From Actinomycetota bacterium (GTDB lineage: Bacteria > Actinomycetota > Acidimicrobiia > Acidimicrobiales > GCA-2861595), in NCBI GenBank assembly GCA_002861595.1, contig PJQG01000026.1, positions 442-64,441 on the forward strand: DNA of 64,000 bases, in the 5' to 3' direction. The position numbers and the translations under genes are program-made. The notes under the pieces were generated by a model. That model did no database searches, was not told the origin of the DNA, and saw only the letters and a list, made by a program, of their open reading frames with translations. Shown here piece by piece: positions 1,124 to 59,766 of the stretch (within the stretch, counting starts at the first letter, position 1; every line of letters starts with the position of its first letter).

Positions 1124-2404
1124 GGCGCCGGGCGGGCTTGGGCGGCGGAAGCGCGGGCGGTGGCCGCGTGGGTCGTGCTGGTCGGCGTGGCGCTGGTGTG
1201 GGGTGCGGGGGTGCGGGCCGACCGTGGAGCCCACATCCAGGCCGCCCCCTTCGTGGGGGCATGGCTGCCGGCGTGGGGCTGGCGGGTGCTCCCCGCCGCC
1301 GCCGTGGCTGCGGCAGCGGTGGCGTGGGGCCCCGAGCTGGCCGCCCGGCTGTCCTGGCGCCGGCTCCTGACCGTGGCCATGCTGGCCGCCGCCGCCTGGG
1401 CCGTGGCCCTGGCCCTCGTCGACGGGCCCGGCGCCCTGACGGCACCGCTCACCACCCGCTACGAGTACCTCCACGACGTTCCCCGCGTGGCGTCGGCGGG
1501 GCCAGGGCGCTTCCTCGAGACCTTCGTCGAACAGGTGCCCACGTTCGCCACCCACGTGAAGAGCCACCCCCCGGGCATGGTGCTCGCGCTCTGGGGCCTG
1601 GACCGGGTGGGCGTGGGCGGGCCGCGATGGGCCGCGGTTCTCGTGCTGGCCGGCGGGGCCGCGGCCGTGGTCGGCGCCCTCACCGCGGCCAAAGAGATGG
1701 TCGGTGAGGCAATGGCCCGGCGGGCCGCGCCGTTCGTGGCCCTGGCCCCCGCCGCCGTGTTCGTGGCCACCTCTCCCGACGCCGTGTTCGCCGGGGTGGC
1801 TGCGTGGGGCGTGGCCCTGCTCGTCCTGGCCACGGGCCGCGAGGGCCGACGTTCCGACGCGCTGGCTCTGGGCGGTGGTGCCCTGCTCGGCGCTGCCCTC
1901 TTCCTCTCCTACGGCGCCGTCCTCCTGCTCGCGGTCCCCGCGGCCGTGGCGCTCGCCCGCCGGCGCCGGCGTCCCCTCGCCATCGCCGGCCTCACCGTGG
2001 CCGCCATCGCCCTGGTCTTCGCCGTCGCCGGCTTCTGGTGGCTGGACGGGCTGTCGGCGGCCCGGGCCGCGTACCACCGCGGCCTGGCCTCCCGCCGACC
2101 CTACGGCTACTTCCTCGTGGCCAACCTGGCCGTCTTCGCCGTGCTCCTGAGCCCGGCCACCGCGGCCGCCCTCACGCGGCTCCGCCACCGACGGCTCTGG
2201 TTGCTCGTCGGCGCCGCGCTGGCATCGGTGGCCCTCGCCGACCTGAGCGGGCTGTCCAAGGGCGAGGTGGAGCGCATCTGGCTGCTCTTCGTTCCCTGGG
2301 TGGTGCTGGCCTGCGCCTCCCTCGGCCCTCGGGTGCGGGGCTGGTTGGCCGTCCACGTCGGCACCGGGCTGGCCCTCCAGCTCCTCCTCAGGTCACCGTG
2401 GTGA
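1112..2404 (+). CDS. Polytopic membrane protein, GT-C-like putative glycosyltransferase
   Basis: ORF 1058..2404. Many hydrophobic helices, YEYLHD acidic loop and SHPPG motif (the H-PP-L/G type seen in PMT/ArnT-like GT-C). Start uncertain (GTG 1058, ATG 1112 or later GTG). Confidence 0.6.
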   Translation: MYSRGAGRAWAAEARAVAAWVVLVGVALVWGAGVRADRGAHIQAAPFVGAWLPAWGWRVLPAAAVAAAAVAWGPELAARLSWRRLLTVAMLAAAAWAVALALVDGPGALTAPLTTRYEYLHDVPRVASAGPGRFLETFVEQVPTFATHVKSHPPGMVLALWGLDRVGVGGPRWAAVLVLAGGAAAVVGALTAAKEMVGEAMARRAAPFVALAPAAVFVATSPDAVFAGVAAWGVALLVLATGREGRRSDALALGGGALLGAALFLSYGAVLLLAVPAAVALARRRRRPLAIAGLTVAAIALVFAVAGFWWLDGLSAARAAYHRGLASRRPYGYFLVANLAVFAVLLSPATAAALTRLRHRRLWLLVGAALASVALADLSGLSKGEVERIWLLFVPWVVLACASLGPRVRGWLAVHVGTGLALQLLLRSPW

Positions 2405-3156
2405 CGGTCGACCCTCTGCTGGCGGGCACCGAGCCGCCGCCCCGCATCCTGGTCGTCGACGACGATGCCACCGTGACCGAGGTCCTGACCCGCTACCTCC
2501 AGCGCGAGGGCTTCGCCGTGGACGCGGCCGCCGACGGGGACACGGCGCTGGCCCGGGCCGCGGCCGCGCCGCCCGACCTGGTGGTGCTCGACCTCATGCT
2601 CCCCGGGATCGACGGGCTGGAGGTGTGCCGGCGCCTGCGCCAGAGGGCACCGCTGCCCATCGTGATGCTGACGGCCCGGGGGGACGAAGGCGACCGCATC
2701 GCCGGGCTCGAGCTGGGCGCCGACGACTACGTGGTGAAGCCGTTCTCTCCCCGGGAGCTGACGGCGCGGCTGAAGGCCGTCCTGCGCCGATCGCAGGGCC
2801 ACAGCCCGCTGTCCGCATCTCCCCCGTCCCTCGAGGGTGTGATCCGGGCCGGCGACCTGAACATCGACCCCGCCGCCCGTCAGGTCCACGTGTGCGGCCG
2901 GGAGGTCGCCCTCACCGCCCGGGAGTTCGAGCTGCTGGCCTTCCTCGCCCGGCACCCGAGGCGCGCCTTTCGCCGAGAGGAGCTGTTCGAGCAGGTGTGG
3001 GGATGGACCTACGGCGACACCGCCACCGTGACCGTGCACGTGCGTCGCCTCCGGGAGAAGGTGGAGGTGGACCCTGCTGCTCCTGTCCACATCGTCACGG
3101 TGTGGGGCGTGGGGTACCGCTTCGACCCGGAGCCGTCCCCGGGACCGGCGTCATGA
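2401..3156 (+). CDS. OmpR/PhoB-family response regulator
   Basis: ILVVDDD...DLVVLDLMLPGIDG receiver domain plus winged-helix LTAREFELLAFLARHP...VTVHVRRLREKVE. GTGA overlap with the upstream stop (2401-2404). Confidence 0.9.
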   Translation: MTVDPLLAGTEPPPRILVVDDDATVTEVLTRYLQREGFAVDAAADGDTALARAAAAPPDLVVLDLMLPGIDGLEVCRRLRQRAPLPIVMLTARGDEGDRIAGLELGADDYVVKPFSPRELTARLKAVLRRSQGHSPLSASPPSLEGVIRAGDLNIDPAARQVHVCGREVALTAREFELLAFLARHPRRAFRREELFEQVWGWTYGDTATVTVHVRRLREKVEVDPAAPVHIVTVWGVGYRFDPEPSPGPAS

Positions 3157-4397
3157 GACGGACCGCGGCGGCCATCGTGGGCTGTGGGCTGGCGCTGGCC
3201 GTCGTCGTCGCCGTCGTCGTCGGCGCCCCCGCCTCCGACGCCGTGCAGCTCATGGGCTTCGCCGCCGGCGGCGCGCTCGCCGCCGGCGCGGCGGGAACGG
3301 CGGCGCTCTCCTCCCTCCGCCACCGCTCGGTGAGGGCCCAGGCCGTGGTCGTCGCCCTCACCTCGGTGGTGGCCGTGGGCCTCGGCGCCACCGCGGCCGC
3401 CGATGCCATGTTCCTGTCGGCGCACGACTATGGCGCCCTGCTCGTCATCCTGGTCACGGCGGGGACGGTGGGCCTGGTCACCGCCCTCGTGCTGGGCGAC
3501 CGCCTGCTGGCCGGGAGCCGCTCGCTGGGAGAGATCGTGCGCCGGATCGGCGACCTGGGCGGCGCTCCGCCGGCGCCGGGCGCACCACCGCCGGCCACCG
3601 AGGAACTGGCCGGGCTGGCCCGACAGCTGGCGGAGATGTCGAACCGCCTGGAGCAGGCCCGGGCCCGGGAGCGCTCGCTCGAGGCCTCCCGGCGAGAGCT
3701 GGTGGCGTGGGTGTCCCACGACCTGCGCACCCCCCTTGCCGGCATCAGGGCCATGGTGGAGGCGCTGGAGGACGGGGTCGTCACCGATGCCGGGACGGTG
3801 GAGCGCTACCACCGCACGATGCGCCTCGAGGTGGACCGGCTGGCCGGTCTGGTGGACGACCTGTTCGAGCTCAGCCGCATCCAGGCCGGCGCCCTGGAGC
3901 TGCACCTCGAGCCGGCCTCGCTGTCCGACCTCATCTCCGATGCCCTGGCCGGCGCATCGGCGGTGGCCGACGCCAAGGGCGTGCACCTGGAGGGGCGCCT
4001 CGACGGTCCTGCGCCCGAGGTGGAGGTGGCCACGCCCGAGGTCCTGCGCGTGCTGCGCAACCTGCTCGACAACGCCATCCGCCACACCCCCGCCGCCGGC
4101 CAGGTGTGCCTGGAGGCCGGAGTGATGGACCACCACGCCGTGGTGTCCGTGCGTGACCGCTGTGGCGGGATCCCCGGCGGCGAGCTCGACCGGGTGTTCG
4201 ACCTCGCCTTCCGGGGCGACGCCGCCCGCACGCCCGAGCACGACGGCGGGGCCGGCCTCGGGCTGGCCATCGCCCGGGGGATCGTCGAGGCCCACCACGG
4301 CGACATCGCCGTGCGCAACGAGGAGGACGGCTGCCGCTTCACCCTCCGCCTGCCCCTGCCGAGCTCGTCGTCGTCGGCGACGGCCTCGCCGGCATGA
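3153..4397 (+). CDS. Sensor histidine kinase, multi-TM N-terminus with no large periplasmic domain
   Basis: H-box WVSHDLRTPL, N-box NLLDNAIRHT, G-box GGAGLGLAIARGIV. ATGA overlap with the RR stop (3153-3156). Confidence 0.9.
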   Translation: MRRTAAAIVGCGLALAVVVAVVVGAPASDAVQLMGFAAGGALAAGAAGTAALSSLRHRSVRAQAVVVALTSVVAVGLGATAAADAMFLSAHDYGALLVILVTAGTVGLVTALVLGDRLLAGSRSLGEIVRRIGDLGGAPPAPGAPPPATEELAGLARQLAEMSNRLEQARARERSLEASRRELVAWVSHDLRTPLAGIRAMVEALEDGVVTDAGTVERYHRTMRLEVDRLAGLVDDLFELSRIQAGALELHLEPASLSDLISDALAGASAVADAKGVHLEGRLDGPAPEVEVATPEVLRVLRNLLDNAIRHTPAAGQVCLEAGVMDHHAVVSVRDRCGGIPGGELDRVFDLAFRGDAARTPEHDGGAGLGLAIARGIVEAHHGDIAVRNEEDGCRFTLRLPLPSSSSSATASPA

Positions 4398-52479: not shown

Positions 52480-53763
52480 CTAGGCGGCCATGCCCACGAT
52501 CCGGCCGCTGATGCCCGTGCCTGCGGTCGACCCGTGGAAGACGGCGTCGCCGAAGCCGAAGATGCCGCCGTCCGAGGCCACCAGCCAGTAGCCGTTGCCC
52601 GAGCGGCTCGCGGCCATGCCCACGATGGGCCGGGCGAGCTTGATGGCGCCGGTCGAGCCGTGGAAGACGGCGTCGCCGAAGCCGAAGATGCCGCCGTCCG
52701 AGGCCACCAGCCAGTAGCCGTTGCCCGAGCGGCTCGCGGCCATGCCGACGATGGGTTGGGCCAGCTTGATGGCGCCGGTCGAGCCGTGGAAGCGGGCGTC
52801 GCCGAAGGCGAAGATGCCGCCGTCCGAGGCGACCAGCCAGTAACCGTTGCCCGAAGGGGTGGCCGCCATGCCGACGATGGGTTGGGCGAGCTTGATGGCG
52901 CCGGTCGAGCCGTGGAAGCGGGCGTCGCCGAAGCCGAAGATCCCGCCGTCCGAGGCCACCAGCCAGTAGCCGTTGCCGGAAGGGGTGGCGGCCATGCCCA
53001 CGATCGCCCGGTTGAGGGAGATGGCGCCGGTCGAGCCGTGGAAGCGGGCGTCGCCGAAGCCGAAGATCCCGCCGTCCGAGGCCACCAGCCAGTAGCCGTC
53101 GCCGGAAGGGGTGGCGGCCATGCCCACGATGGGCCGGGTCAGGGCGAGCCCGCCCGTCGAGCCGTGGAAGCGGGCGTCGCCGAAGCCGAAGAGGCCGCCG
53201 TCGGACGAGGCCATGCGGTACCCCCGGCGGCCGTCGAGGGAGGTCGGCACCGGCGCCGGAGCCGGCGCAGGAGGCGCCAACGTGGCGGACGAGATGGCCC
53301 GGCTGGTCATGAAGTTGACGGTGACGAAGATGGTCGAATCGGGCGCCAGGGCCACGGCGACGCCGACCGAGTCGAAGGCGGGGTCGATCATCTGGCGGTA
53401 GTGGGTGGGGCTGGCCACGAAGGCGTCGTGGATCTCCTGCACCGTCGCGCCCATGCCCACGTTCTCGCCGAGGCGAACCCAGTCCGGCGGGGCCTGGGAA
53501 CGGAGGTTGGGATTGTGGGAGATGTCGTTGGCCCGCACCATCTGCTCGGACCACGACCGGGCCACGGCGACAAGGTCGTTTCGGACGATCAGCTGGCGCA
53601 GGCCCCGCCCCGCCCGCAGCTCATTGAGCTTGGAGACGAACGACGCCTCGCGGGCCGGCTCGGCGGTGGCCGCACGTATGCCCAACGGGGCCGCGATCAC
53701 CAGCGCCAGGGCGGCCAGCGCCAGCGCCAGCGCCAGAGCGAGGCCGCGATACAACTTGCCCAT
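52480..53763 (-). CDS. Secreted CAP/SCP (YkwD-like) domain protein fused to six 41-aa tandem repeats
   Basis: Signal-like LALALALALAALALVIAAPL. CAP motifs (SWSEQM, HNPNL, GENVG, SPTHYRQM). Then 6 x ([42 protein letters not shown]). Confidence 0.85.
   Translation of the reverse strand: MGKLYRGLALALALALAALALVIAAPLGIRAATAEPAREASFVSKLNELRAGRGLRQLIVRNDLVAVARSWSEQMVRANDISHNPNLRSQAPPDWVRLGENVGMGATVQEIHDAFVASPTHYRQMIDPAFDSVGVAVALAPDSTIFVTVNFMTSRAISSATLAPPAPAPAPVPTSLDGRRGYRMASSDGGLFGFGDARFHGSTGGLALTRPIVGMAATPSGDGYWLVASDGGIFGFGDARFHGSTGAISLNRAIVGMAATPSGNGYWLVASDGGIFGFGDARFHGSTGAIKLAQPIVGMAATPSGNGYWLVASDGGIFAFGDARFHGSTGAIKLAQPIVGMAASRSGNGYWLVASDGGIFGFGDAVFHGSTGAIKLARPIVGMAASRSGNGYWLVASDGGIFGFGDAVFHGSTAGTGISGRIVGMAA
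52483..53217 (-). repeat. Six tandem 123-bp coding repeats, adjacent central copies nearly identical at DNA level
   Basis: Read directly. For example, the units beginning gtggaagacggcgtcgccgaagccgaagatgccgcc at ~52534 and ~52657 differ at only a few positions. Confidence 0.9.
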
Positions 53764-56622: not shown

Positions 56623-57600
56623 TCAGCCGAGGCAGCCGTTGGCCGCCCCGACCCGGGCGAGGCCGTTGCGGTCGCCGGCGCCCCAGTCGGCTGGCGTGCG
56701 GGAGGTGACCGTCGGGTACATGATCTGGGCCTGGTCGCCCGAGTGGTCGAGGCCCACCATGTGACCGAGCTCGTGCATCAGCAGGGCGCCCTGGGTGACA
56801 CCTCCGCTGAAGCCGGCCGGCACCGTCCGGTTGGCGTCGATCACCACGAAGCCACGGGTGATGCGGATGTAGCCGTTGGACGACACGGCGGCCGCTCCGC
56901 CCACGCCGGCGGCGTTGCCGGTGAGCATGTTGGTCTCTTCGTGCGTGGCCCAGGCGATGACAGTGCCGGCGCCGCTGTAGCCGTTGCCGCCGTTGCTCGG
57001 CACCTCGCCGGTGGAGCCGTCGTAGACGAAGTTGATGCCGGTGGCCTGCCCCACCCGGCGCATGGCTTCCTGCACGTCCTCGACACCGCCGGCGGGGGCC
57101 CGGCTGGCGTTGATGGAGTAGTGGACGGGCGCGCACGGGTTCCAGCGACCCGGGTTGCCGCCGTTGGGGAAGAGGAAGGCGAAAGCGCCGGCGTCGCCGC
57201 CACCGGCAGGGACGGCCTCTGGCCGGGGAGCCGGAGCGGGGACGGGAGCGGCGGCGGGGGCGCCGGAGGGAGCGGGGGCAGGTGCGCCCACGACGGAGCA
57301 GCGACGGGCCCGGCCCCGCCCCCTGCACACTCTGCGGGGCTTGGCCGCCTGGCGGGACCTGGCGGCGCGGCGCGCCCTGGTCGCACGGCGCGCCTTCGCG
57401 GCCCGGCGGGCCTTGGCCGGCGCCAGCCGGGTCTCCTCTTCAGAGAAGGTGCGTGTGGCGCGAACAGCCGAGGGGGCCGAAGCCGAGGAAGGCGGCGTGG
57501 CAACGGTCTCGTCGGCACGAGCTTGGGTGGCGGGGGTGCCGATGAGAAGGGCGCCGAAGAGGACGGCGATGCGGATCGTCTTGCTCCTGGTTGCGGTCAT
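56623..57600 (-). CDS. Secreted metzincin (matrixin/M10-like zinc protease) with Arg/Ala-rich basic tract after signal peptide
   Basis: ATG 57600. Signal IRIAVLFGALLIGTPATQARA. HELGHMVGLDH zinc motif and IMYP Met-turn. AKARRAAKARRATRARRAARSRQAAKPRR tract. Confidence 0.8.
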   Translation of the reverse strand: MTATRSKTIRIAVLFGALLIGTPATQARADETVATPPSSASAPSAVRATRTFSEEETRLAPAKARRAAKARRATRARRAARSRQAAKPRRVCRGRGRARRCSVVGAPAPAPSGAPAAAPVPAPAPRPEAVPAGGGDAGAFAFLFPNGGNPGRWNPCAPVHYSINASRAPAGGVEDVQEAMRRVGQATGINFVYDGSTGEVPSNGGNGYSGAGTVIAWATHEETNMLTGNAAGVGGAAAVSSNGYIRITRGFVVIDANRTVPAGFSGGVTQGALLMHELGHMVGLDHSGDQAQIMYPTVTSRTPADWGAGDRNGLARVGAANGCLG

Positions 57601-57629
57601 GCCAAAGGCGTCGTCGCGCCGGCATCCGG

Positions 57630-57811
57630 GTTGTATCAAGCCCGCCCCAACGTCCCATCAACACTTTCCCTTCCGGGGGTGCTGAGGCCCAGTTGGCGGA
57701 AAAAACCCCCCGATCGGGCAAGCTCCCCCAGCCATGCCACGCCGAGAAACGTGGTCAGTAAGAACCACAACCCACAGGGTTGATGGGACGTTGGGGAAAG
57801 GTTGATACGCC
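57630..57811. promoter_or_regulatory. Mirror-image upstream modules for two divergent genes: 18-bp perfect inverted cores (57645-57662 / 57779-57796), each 44 nt from its ATG
   Basis: CCCCAACGTCCCATCAAC versus GTTGATGGGACGTTGGGG read directly. The spacers also align (TTGATAC, GACGAC, TTGGC-ATG). Each module reads as three 11-nt-phased GTTG/CTTG units. Confidence 0.85.
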
Positions 57812-57840
57812 GCAGAGTCCGCAAAGACGACACGTTGGGC

Positions 57841-58647
57841 ATGATCAAGCTCCTCGCATCCGTCGCCCTGGTTTCCCTCCCCCTTTCTCTGCTGCCCGCC
57901 GGCTCAGCGTCAGCCGCGGAGTGCAACCTGTTGGGGGGGGTGATCACCAACTGCACCCGGCCCTCGTCCTCGCCCCCGCCGTCGTCGTCGTCACCGCCCC
58001 CCTCCTCCTCGCAGCCACAGCCGTCCCAGCCACAGCCGAGCAGGCCGGCCGGCACCCCCATCGCCGAGGTTCCCGGAGCCGCCGAGCGCCTGATGGAGCT
58101 GGTCAACGGTGAGCGCACCAGCCGAGGCATGGTGGCCCTGTCGATTCGCGGTGACGTCGTCGCCATCGCCGGCCCCCATTCCACCGACATGGCGAGACGG
58201 CGCACCATCTGGCACAACGACGGCTACTTCACCGAGTCGACCCGCTCGTCGCTGCGCTCGAGGGCGCGGGGCGAGAACGTGGCCATGAACTCCTCGCTGG
58301 AGGACGCCCACCGCCGGCTGATGAACAGCCCCGCCCATCGGGCCAACATCCTCAACGGTGGCTTCACCCAGGCCGGCTTCTCGGTCGTCCATGACGAGTC
58401 GGGAACGCTGTACGTCACCCAGAACTTCATGACCCCTGAGACTCCCGAGGCGGCCGCCCCGGCCAAGTCGAGCAAGGCCAAGGCCACCAAGTCCAAGGCC
58501 ACAGCCGGCAAGTCCAAGGCCACAGCCGGCAAGTCCAAGGCCAAGGCCAAGAGGGCCAAGGCCTCAAGGGCCAAGCGCTCCCGCACGCGGGTCGCCAAGG
58601 CGGGCGCTCCCCGCCGGGCCCGCACCGCACAGCGGGCCCGGCGCTAG
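57841..58647 (+). CDS. Secreted CAP/SCP (YkwD-like) domain protein with Ser/Pro linker and Lys/Ala-rich basic C-terminal tail
   Basis: ATG 57841. Signal MIKLLASVALVSLPLSLLPAGSASA. CAP motifs (NGERTSRG, HSTDMA, GENVA, NSPAHRANIL, FTQAGFSV). Tail AKSSKAKATKSKATAGKSKATAGKSKAKAKRAK... Confidence 0.85.
   Translation: MIKLLASVALVSLPLSLLPAGSASAAECNLLGGVITNCTRPSSSPPPSSSSPPPSSSQPQPSQPQPSRPAGTPIAEVPGAAERLMELVNGERTSRGMVALSIRGDVVAIAGPHSTDMARRRTIWHNDGYFTESTRSSLRSRARGENVAMNSSLEDAHRRLMNSPAHRANILNGGFTQAGFSVVHDESGTLYVTQNFMTPETPEAAAPAKSSKAKATKSKATAGKSKATAGKSKAKAKRAKASRAKRSRTRVAKAGAPRRARTAQRARR
58489..58542 (+). repeat. 21-bp tandem repeat (AAGTCCAAGGCCACAGCCGGC x2 plus partial third) encoding KSKATAG units
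   Basis: Read directly within the basic tail of the CAP protein. Confidence 0.85.
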
Positions 58648-58767: not shown

Positions 58768-59766
58768 TCAACCCCTCGACAACACGGGCACGGCCAGGGC
58801 GGCCAGCGAGGTCCGGGGGCGGGCGCCGATGTGGCTGATGACCTCGGCTGCCGCCACGCTGCCCAGCCGGGCGCACCCCTCCAGGTCGGCGCCGTGGGTG
58901 AGGCCGAAGAGGAAGCCGGCGGCGTAGAGATCACCGGCCCCGGTGGTGTCCACCACCTGGTCCACGGGAGCGGCGGGCACGGCCAAGACGGCGTCGCCGC
59001 CCACCACCACCGAGCCTTCCGGTCCCCGGGTGAACGCCGCGATCTCGCACCTCCCCCGAACGGCGGCTACCGCCTCCTCGAGCGACGCAACCTCGAACAG
59101 GGACGTGGCCTCGGCATCGTTGGCGAAGAGCACGTCGACGTCGCCGTCGAGCAGAGCGAGGAACTCGTCGCGGTGGCGGTCCACGCAGAACGGGTCCGAG
59201 AGCGAGAAGGCCACCCGCCGGCCGGCGGCGTGGGCCAAGGCCATGGCCTGGCGCAGGGCCGAGATGGCGTCGGGCGGGTCCCACAGGTACCCCTCCAGGT
59301 AGGTCACCTGGGCCCGGGTGATCAGCGCCGGGTCGATGTCCTCGGCCGCCAACCGGCGCGCCGCCCCCAGGTAGGTGGTCATGGTGCGCTCGGCGTCGGG
59401 CGTGACGAGCACGAGGCAGCGGGCCGTCGCCTCTCCCTCGGTGGCGGGTGGCGTGGAGAACTCCACGCCGATGGAGCGGATGTCGTGGGTGAACACCTTG
59501 CCCATCTCGTCGTCGCGCACCTTGCCGATGAAGGCGGCCGCCCCACCGAAGGACGCCACGCCTGCGACGGTGTTGGCCGCCGACCCTCCCGAGGTCTGCA
59601 CCGCCGGGCCCATGGCGGCGTACGACGCGTCGGCCTGCTCGGCGTGGACGAGGACCATGCTGCCCTTCACCAGCCCGTGGAGGTCCAGGTCCTCGTCGCT
59701 GGCAGAGGCGATGACGTCGACGATGGCATGCCCCACGGCCACCACGTCGAGCTCGTCGCCAGGCAC
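58768..59766 (-). CDS. PfkB-family carbohydrate/nucleoside kinase, adenosine-kinase-like
   Basis: VVAVGHAIVD, TSGGSAANT, DTTGAGDLYAAGFLFG (PfkB signature 2). Confidence 0.85.
   Translation of the reverse strand: MPGDELDVVAVGHAIVDVIASASDEDLDLHGLVKGSMVLVHAEQADASYAAMGPAVQTSGGSAANTVAGVASFGGAAAFIGKVRDDEMGKVFTHDIRSIGVEFSTPPATEGEATARCLVLVTPDAERTMTTYLGAARRLAAEDIDPALITRAQVTYLEGYLWDPPDAISALRQAMALAHAAGRRVAFSLSDPFCVDRHRDEFLALLDGDVDVLFANDAEATSLFEVASLEEAVAAVRGRCEIAAFTRGPEGSVVVGGDAVLAVPAAPVDQVVDTTGAGDLYAAGFLFGLTHGADLEGCARLGSVAAAEVISHIGARPRTSLAALAVPVLSRG

Follow-up and report, generated by a model that had tools for sequence, protein, structure and literature searches.

Acidimicrobiia form an abundant soil and water lineage, uncultured for the most part, in which transcription control is, to our knowledge, next to unstudied. 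Within the 64,000-nucleotide stretch of DNA analyzed here (the window), two divergently transcribed genes for secreted proteins carry mirror-image copies of one upstream module. What is this module, and does it belong to the pair or to each of its genes?

Two divergent genes with a shared upstream module

The initial annotation had taken the two genes to encode a metzincin and a CAP protein, and the Pfam assignments (Peptidase_M10 and CAP, respectively) agree (Table 1). The matrixin translation contains HELGHMVGLDH and an IMYP Met-turn; the CAP protein is 100% identical to NCBI protein P0001, and the two agree on the start codon. Both proteins have plausible N-terminal signal peptides, and the nearest relatives of the window proteins come from Acidimicrobiales metagenome-assembled genomes (MAGs).

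The 18-mer GTTGATGGGACGTTGGGG occurs at 57779-57796 (+), and its reverse complement occurs at 57645-57662; with up to 3 mismatches allowed, the 64-kb window contains no further match (chance expectation, 0.11). Both copies of the 18-nt core, described at the outset as identical, were thereby located, and each does end 44 nt before its ATG, at 57841 (+) and 57600 (−). An independent recount of the two 44-nt spacers gave 27/44 identical positions, the same figure as before, and the three GTTG units with 11-nt phasing were recovered in both arms as GTTG-N7-GTTG-N7-STTG. In the window, this pattern matches the two arms only, and it was absent from all 100 shuffles. Beyond what was annotated initially, there is a G.CGA box at −15/−11 and a C−1/ATG context (numbering relative to the A of ATG), the module is conserved across genomes, and copies lie upstream of unpaired genes.

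Table 1. Coordinates of the two genes, the elements of each arm, and the spacer between them
Feature	Position	Strand	Evidence or remark
CAP-domain (SCP/YkwD-like) secreted protein gene, 268 aa	57841..58647	+	Pfam CAP, 1.2e-13
Matrixin-family (Peptidase_M10) zinc metalloprotease gene, 325 aa	56623..57600	-	Pfam, 1.6e-07; orthologues found
CAP arm, unit 1 GTTGATGGGAC (−62 to −52; A of ATG = reference)	57779..57789	+	TTG −61/−59 in 17/17
CAP arm, unit 2 GTTGGGGAAAG (−51 to −41)	57790..57800	+	GTTG.G invariant; best-conserved block
CAP arm, unit 3 GTTGATACGCC (−40 to −30), proposed −35-type element	57801..57811	+	T.GATA −39/−34 invariant
CAP arm, variable spacer of fixed length (−29 to −16)	57812..57825	+	no indels, 17 copies
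CAP arm, GACGAC box (−15 to −10), proposed −10-type element of an alternative σ	57826..57831	+	G−15, C−13 G−12 A−11 invariant
CAP arm, start context ACGTTGGGC-ATG, proposed transcription start A 57841	57832..57843	+	T−5, C−1, ATG invariant
Matrixin arm, unit 1 GTTGATGGGAC	57652..57662	-	sequence and alignment
Matrixin arm, unit 2 GTTGGGGCGGG	57641..57651	-	alignment
Matrixin arm, unit 3 CTTGATACAAC	57630..57640	-	identical in 6/8 matrixin-side copies
Matrixin arm, GACGAC box (−15 to −10)	57610..57615	-	alignment
Matrixin arm, start context GCCTTTGGC-ATG, proposed transcription start A 57600	57598..57609	-	alignment
Central spacer between arms, poorly conserved	57663..57778		116 nt in window; 116-229 nt among genomes

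A second CAP-domain gene (52480-53763, minus strand; 427 aa) lacks the module and has a GGAGGG Shine-Dalgarno (SD) sequence at −13/−8. This CAP-domain gene is preceded, at a distance of 45 nt, by a c-di-GMP-I riboswitch (RF01051; 53809-53897, minus strand; 66.2 bits, E = 9e-11), such that two CAP paralogues 4 kb apart are under different control devices, the module in one case and riboswitch plus SD in the other. Elsewhere in the window, 2401-4397 (+) encodes an OmpR-type response regulator and a HisKA/HATPase kinase, and 7293-29060 is occupied by an envelope-glycosylation cluster that includes three PMT_2 mannosyltransferase-like genes, GT2, GDP-mannose 4,6-dehydratase, and an ABC-2 transporter.

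The module is a property of the individual genes

We found 17 gapless copies of the module in 10 loci from related Acidimicrobiales-like MAGs, as well as two degenerate remote copies. Our alignment of the 17 copies runs from unit 1 through the ATG; the remote copies, L090 and L091, were kept apart from it, and counts out of 19 refer to the 17 plus these two. A divergent CAP/matrixin pair is present at L001, L002, L003, L004, L037, and L071, with the module on both genes in every case, which brings to seven (window included) the genomes with a divergent pair in which both arms are conserved. The neighbors of the pair vary by locus (LigD/PfkB, MscS, or RelA/HisS), and synteny is not conserved.

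Single-arm copies precede unpaired CAP genes at L068 (56% identity) and L069 (49%) and an unpaired matrixin gene at L070. The L068 copy (L068:2939-3003, plus strand; GCA_030773755.1, contig JALYML010000138.1), whose unit 2 reads AGTTGGG, stands before a CAP paralogue in the same MAG as the window pair; if the bin is clean, that genome has at least three module copies, and the regulon may exceed the pair. Upstream of the remote CAP gene L091, all blocks are present, although units 1 to 3 lie 1 nt further from the box (a +1 shift), and position −1 is G; another remote CAP gene, L090, has kept GACGAC, placed at exactly −15/−10, together with unit 2 and some of unit 3. The module is absent from the remote matrixin homologue L089. 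This homologue (L089:1669-5167; 52% identity, 60% of query) is followed directly by flgN-flgK-flgL and preceded by a NarL/GerE-type response regulator.

Because the module precedes CAP and matrixin genes whether they are paired or unpaired, the mirror image is incidental: the module belongs to each gene and not to the pair, and the inverted arrangement in the window results from two module-bearing genes lying head to head. This distribution, with arms conserved in the seven genomes and on unpaired CAP and matrixin genes too, speaks strongly for the co-regulation proposed initially, exerted through a cis element that both genes share.

Gapless identity of the central spacer among genomes is 0.27 to 0.55, compared with a null of 0.26; this central intergenic part is barely homologous and variable in length, and the arms are therefore islands of conservation. 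The ATG-to-ATG distance is 349 to 353 nt in five genomes (L001:2689-3040, L002:2650-3000, L003:2757-3106, L004:2650-3000, and L037), near constant despite a center that can barely be aligned and has a lower GC content (0.50-0.63). For the window and L071, the corresponding distances are 240 and 262 nt. A central patch, CCATTGA(T/C)C, occurs in L002 and L004, and its L037 counterpart is TCATTGACC.

Conserved blocks at fixed spacing

Conservation within the module is confined to discrete blocks: TTG at −61/−59, GTTGGG at −51/−46, T.GATA at −39/−34 (usually followed by C), and G.CGA at −15/−11. Nearer the start, there are CCTT at −8/−5 with T−5 invariant, C−1, and the ATG at +1/+3. Positions −51 to −48 and −46 of unit 2 are the same in 17/17 copies and position −47 in 15/17, and this block is kept in the remote copies L090 and L091. 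Invariant TTG at −61/−59 and −50/−48 and T.G at −39/−37 (17/17) give the module the 11-bp periodicity of direct repeats.

Positions −29 to −16 are near random, with an information content mostly below 0.8 bit and at most ~1.0. There are 0 indels between unit 1 and the ATG in the 17 copies; the length between blocks is fixed and the sequence free. Unit 3 and the box are 24 bp apart center to center, with an 18-bp spacer in which L091 tolerates one additional base pair. That insertion is the sole indel among the 19 copies, and the box-to-ATG distance is constant in all of them. In L070 and both L071 arms, T−38 is changed to C jointly with A−14 to G (14 copies with TA versus 3 with CG), a covariation that amounts to one or two evolutionary events. 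Immediately before unit 1, at about −70/−64 (57771-57777 in the window), a weak CCC(A/G)AAG is found mainly on the CAP side and in both L071 arms, with an offset of ±1 nt in some copies.

Stem, coding, and repeat readings

A repeat search returned the inverted arms 57597-57665 and 57776-57844 as 69 nt long and 74% complementary, as might be expected if the module were a structural or accidental inverted repeat, that is, a stem, a cruciform, or the remnant of an inverted duplication or mobile element. The same class of explanation would include an N-terminal extension or uORF, and here it can draw on L001, in which the CAP gene is called from the unit 3 TTG. We consider all such explanations very improbable. 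The long-range stem envisaged in the initial annotation, and gene conversion with it, we rejected: the arms do not covary within genomes, and their similarity at variable positions, 0.51 within versus 0.45 between genomes, is only a weak excess (permutation p ~0.02). The stem is further at odds with the single arms at L068, L069, L070, L090, and L091.

Coding readings were rejected as well. An extension from the unit 3 TTG meets in-frame stops in L002(−) and L068 and is missing its start codon in L070 and L071; the unit 1 frame has a stop in L002(+), and the unit 2 frame has stops in most copies. Positions −35, −11, and −5, which would be synonymous, are invariant and their neighbors variable, such that the conservation is not of a codon type. 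The true CAP start is the conserved ATG bearing the signal peptide and not the starts called in L001 (L001:3001, the unit 3 TTG) or L003 (L003:3001, an ATG 106 nt upstream). Module-bearing genes are thus mis-started by gene callers, either at the unit 3 TTG or further upstream.

A dispersed repeat element, the alternative raised initially, does not describe the module either, as copies were found only upstream of CAP or matrixin genes. In 117.6 kb of clade DNA, sub-patterns of two blocks (units 1+2, units 2+3, or unit 3 plus box) turned up nowhere outside the 17 modules. The genome-wide motif search that had been suggested as a check gave exactly two matches, those of the divergent pair, in each of three representative Acidimicrobiales MAGs, just as in the window. 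That search, of 185,579 species-representative genomes, also gave ~57 scattered chance matches and no third site in the three MAGs; the pattern used was strict, requiring CGTTG in unit 2 and so missing variants such as that of L068 (AGTTGGG). Scans of JGI metagenomes and of viruses gave chance matches only. Three chance matches in Streptomyces (L013:1011-1052, L032:7688-7729, and L033:7285-7326) are conserved among themselves and share GCAACGCA(C/T)CGTTGCGTTTTGCTTGATACGGTG, which contains a palindrome and is operator-like.

The module as a transcribed leader

That the module extends precisely to the start codon would also suit a transcribed 5′ leader carrying a linear protein- or sRNA-binding site or a translation signal other than SD. 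Transcription of such a leader would begin at a promoter whose −35 and −10 elements are units 1 and 3, respectively (leader of ~26 nt), or at one further upstream. In keeping with the first arrangement, unit 1 has the TTG of −35 hexamers and unit 3 has an invariant TA 17 to 18 bp downstream; in keeping with the second, the central spacer of some genomes has possible additional σA-like promoters, as judged by eye. However, the sixth hexamer position of unit 3 (−30) is always C or G and never T, and unit 2, the most conserved block, would fall within the promoter spacer. The invariant C−1 would be unexplained, and the box has no anti-SD complementarity. As for a promoter further upstream, a scan of the intergenic region of the window for σ70-type promoters, its 116-nt spacer included, found none.

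The RNA itself gave no sign of a conserved structure. The RNAalifold consensus of ten copies has an energy of −0.58 kcal/mol and 0 compensatory pairs, and the folds of both window leaders are weaker than those of shuffles (z = +1.7 and +0.7). A search of Rfam at the module returned no match at E ≤ 10 save a spurious miRNA, and the whole-window search likewise returned nothing there. The duplicated 5′ leader suggested in the initial annotation, if understood as RNA, finds no support in these results, and we regard any form of leader as quite improbable.

Start codons and the leaderless signature of the clade

An SD 4-mer at working distance is found in 0/17 copies. All 17 aligned copies start with ATG, as do L090 and L091, and C−1/A+1/T+2, which is a classic preferred context for transcription start sites, is invariant in the 17. 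In actinobacteria, leaderless genes of the σA type have TAnnnT approximately 6 to 7 nt before the start codon. Across ~130 kb of clade DNA, 21 of 34 TAnnnT occurrences over 35 offsets fell at −14 to −12 from candidate starts, and we counted 22 leaderless-type genes with TAnnnT 12 to 14 nt before the start, most of which (16/22) start with GTG. Leaderless expression is common in the clade. The profile of SD positions was flat, but it derives from crude gene calls and lacks a clean baseline. Examples of the TAnnnT arrangement in the window are the PfkB gene at 59766 (−) and the starts at 1058 (+), 52313 (−), 47303 (−), and 41318 (−); others are L004:3912, L070:3455, and L090:2112.

C−13 G−12 A−11 of the module occupy the same position as the TAnnnT −10 hexamers of the clade, with a different sequence, and TAnnnT itself is absent between unit 3 and the ATG in every copy. 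The module-bearing genes thus have what characterizes leaderless genes, namely no SD and a promoter element close to the start codon, at an unvarying distance from it.

A proposed composite promoter acting at the start codon

We are confident that the module functions at the DNA level, as a promoter or operator. On our best reading, it is the promoter that co-regulates the CAP protein and the matrixin protease, and the transcripts are very probably leaderless. An arm is read as a leaderless promoter because it has no SD, ATG starts only, a fixed distance from box to ATG, and CGA at the −10 position of the clade. Each arm would act on DNA as a composite promoter, with transcription starting at the A of the ATG, or up to ~3 nt upstream, and yielding leaderless mRNAs for both genes. 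An alternative, ECF-like σ factor would find its −10 element in the G(A/G)CGA(C) box at −15/−10 and its −35 element in T(T/C)GATAC at −39/−33, while the GTTG units at −49 and −60, one and two helical turns upstream, could provide extra contacts for a tandem activator or for the same holoenzyme. Since both genes bear the identical type of module, expression of the CAP protein and of the matrixin protease would be switched on jointly by one trans-acting factor.

The specific model, in which an alternative σ would recognize a leaderless promoter, we hold to have about an even chance of being correct. The 18 bp between T(T/C)GATA and the GACGAC hexamer are an ordinary length for a −35/−10 spacer. 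The L091 insertion of one nucleotide before the box, with the distance from box to ATG unchanged, is expected of a −35/−10 spacer followed by a leaderless start, and the joint −38/−14 change fits a single factor that would read both blocks. Against an ECF-like σ, the −35-like block is GATAC and not the AAC typical of ECF promoters, and the spacer is 1 to 3 bp longer than in known ECF promoters. We found no σ or anti-σ genes in the window and none conserved near the pair. Conservation of units 1 and 2 and of T−6/T−5 is beyond what a σ factor alone explains, and the likeness among the three units suggests that a repeat-binding protein may take part.

We also considered recognition of unit 3 by σ28/WhiG (GTCGATAC compared with GCCGATAA, which we take to be the σ28/WhiG sequence), because the remote matrixin homologue adjoins flgN-flgK-flgL. 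This candidate was rejected: there is no TAAA-like −35 element at the required distance, the module is missing from that flagellar-adjacent homologue, and the rigidity of the box-to-ATG distance is left unexplained.

In the initial annotation, the repeats were read as sites for an OmpR/PhoB-type regulator, and a tandem winged-helix activator (of the OmpR/PhoB or SARP type) could indeed be the main reader of the three 11-bp repeats, with the promoter-proximal unit replacing the −35 element and the housekeeping σ factor doing the rest. The phasing on which that reading was based holds: it is exactly 11 bp, with invariant TTG at −60, −49, and −38 in all 17 copies. PHO boxes consist of 11-nt direct-repeat units in sets of 2 to 5 (PMC7866108), and PhoP dimers bound in tandem overlap the −35 element and take its place (PMC11825685). 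Furthermore, we confirmed that 2401-3156 in the window encodes an OmpR-type regulator, although it lies 55 kb from the module and nothing links the two. The remainder of the evidence is less favorable. The units share only 4 bp (GTTG), and their invariant tails differ (GG in unit 2 versus ATAC in unit 3); the number of units is odd, with no fourth TTG at −72/−70. No TAnnnT −10 element lies downstream, though this element is sharp in the σA promoters of the clade, and the invariant G.CGA box is left without explanation. No regulator gene, of the response-regulator type or other, is conserved beside the pair, and our literature search for the motif found no published match. As the main reader of the module, such an activator appears unlikely to us, yet the idea is partly compatible with the composite promoter, since an activator on units 1 and 2 could join the alternative σ.

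As a clean promoter motif, the module ties a CAP-domain protein and a matrixin-like protease into one functional unit and gives a handle on the regulator and on the remaining regulon. If the composite promoter is as proposed, an alternative promoter class is combined here with leaderless translation. We suggest, tentatively, that the module may be the signature promoter of an undescribed σ, or σ-plus-activator pair, of uncultured Acidimicrobiales: a 62-bp phased element that would fire at the start codon and define a leaderless-only CAP/matrixin "secretome" regulon, possibly integrated with the c-di-GMP control of the CAP paralogue nearby.

Comparison with known systems

Among documented promoters, the actinobacterial ECF class comes nearest to the module. 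The promoter recognized by the ECF σ factor SigD in Mycobacterium abscessus is GTAACA/G-N16-CGAT (PMC13537577), and that of SigD in Corynebacterium glutamicum has GTAAC(A/G) and GAT, its targets being secreted and envelope enzymes (PMC6338062). Like SigD/ECF40 promoters, the module has two short blocks ~24 bp apart with a tolerance of one base pair in the spacer, its −10 block has a CGA core (17/17 copies plus L090 and L091) that is GC-rich and unlike TAnnnT, and its target genes encode secreted or envelope proteins. Unlike those promoters, which have GTAAC or GGAAC, the −35 block of the module is (T/C)GATAC, which does not match G(T/G)AAC and shares only the final AC; there are 18 nt between GATACn and CGA (19 in L091) rather than 16 to 17, or up to 18, nt. 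The module also has two extra phased GTTG units upstream and a strict leaderless geometry, and no linked σ/anti-σ genes were seen with it. On account of its −35 sequence and its spacer, we rejected membership of the module among SigD promoters.

With PHO-box and other OmpR/PhoB-type promoters, the module shares 11-bp direct repeats and a promoter-proximal unit over the −35 position. SARP-type sites, which are heptamer repeats, fall into the same class for comparison. The module differs from this class in having a repeat core of 4 bp instead of 6 to 7 bp, three units instead of pairs, no σA −10 element at the expected distance, and an additional invariant G.CGA box.

Like leaderless actinobacterial genes of the σA type, module-bearing genes have no SD and, on our reading, no 5′ UTR, and the promoter element is at a fixed distance from the start codon. 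They differ from σA leaderless genes in having G.CGA at the −10 position, ATG as the only start codon (versus GTG in 16/22), and more conservation upstream. The module is thus a new regulatory motif of a familiar type, a regulon-specific promoter, in a poorly studied lineage.
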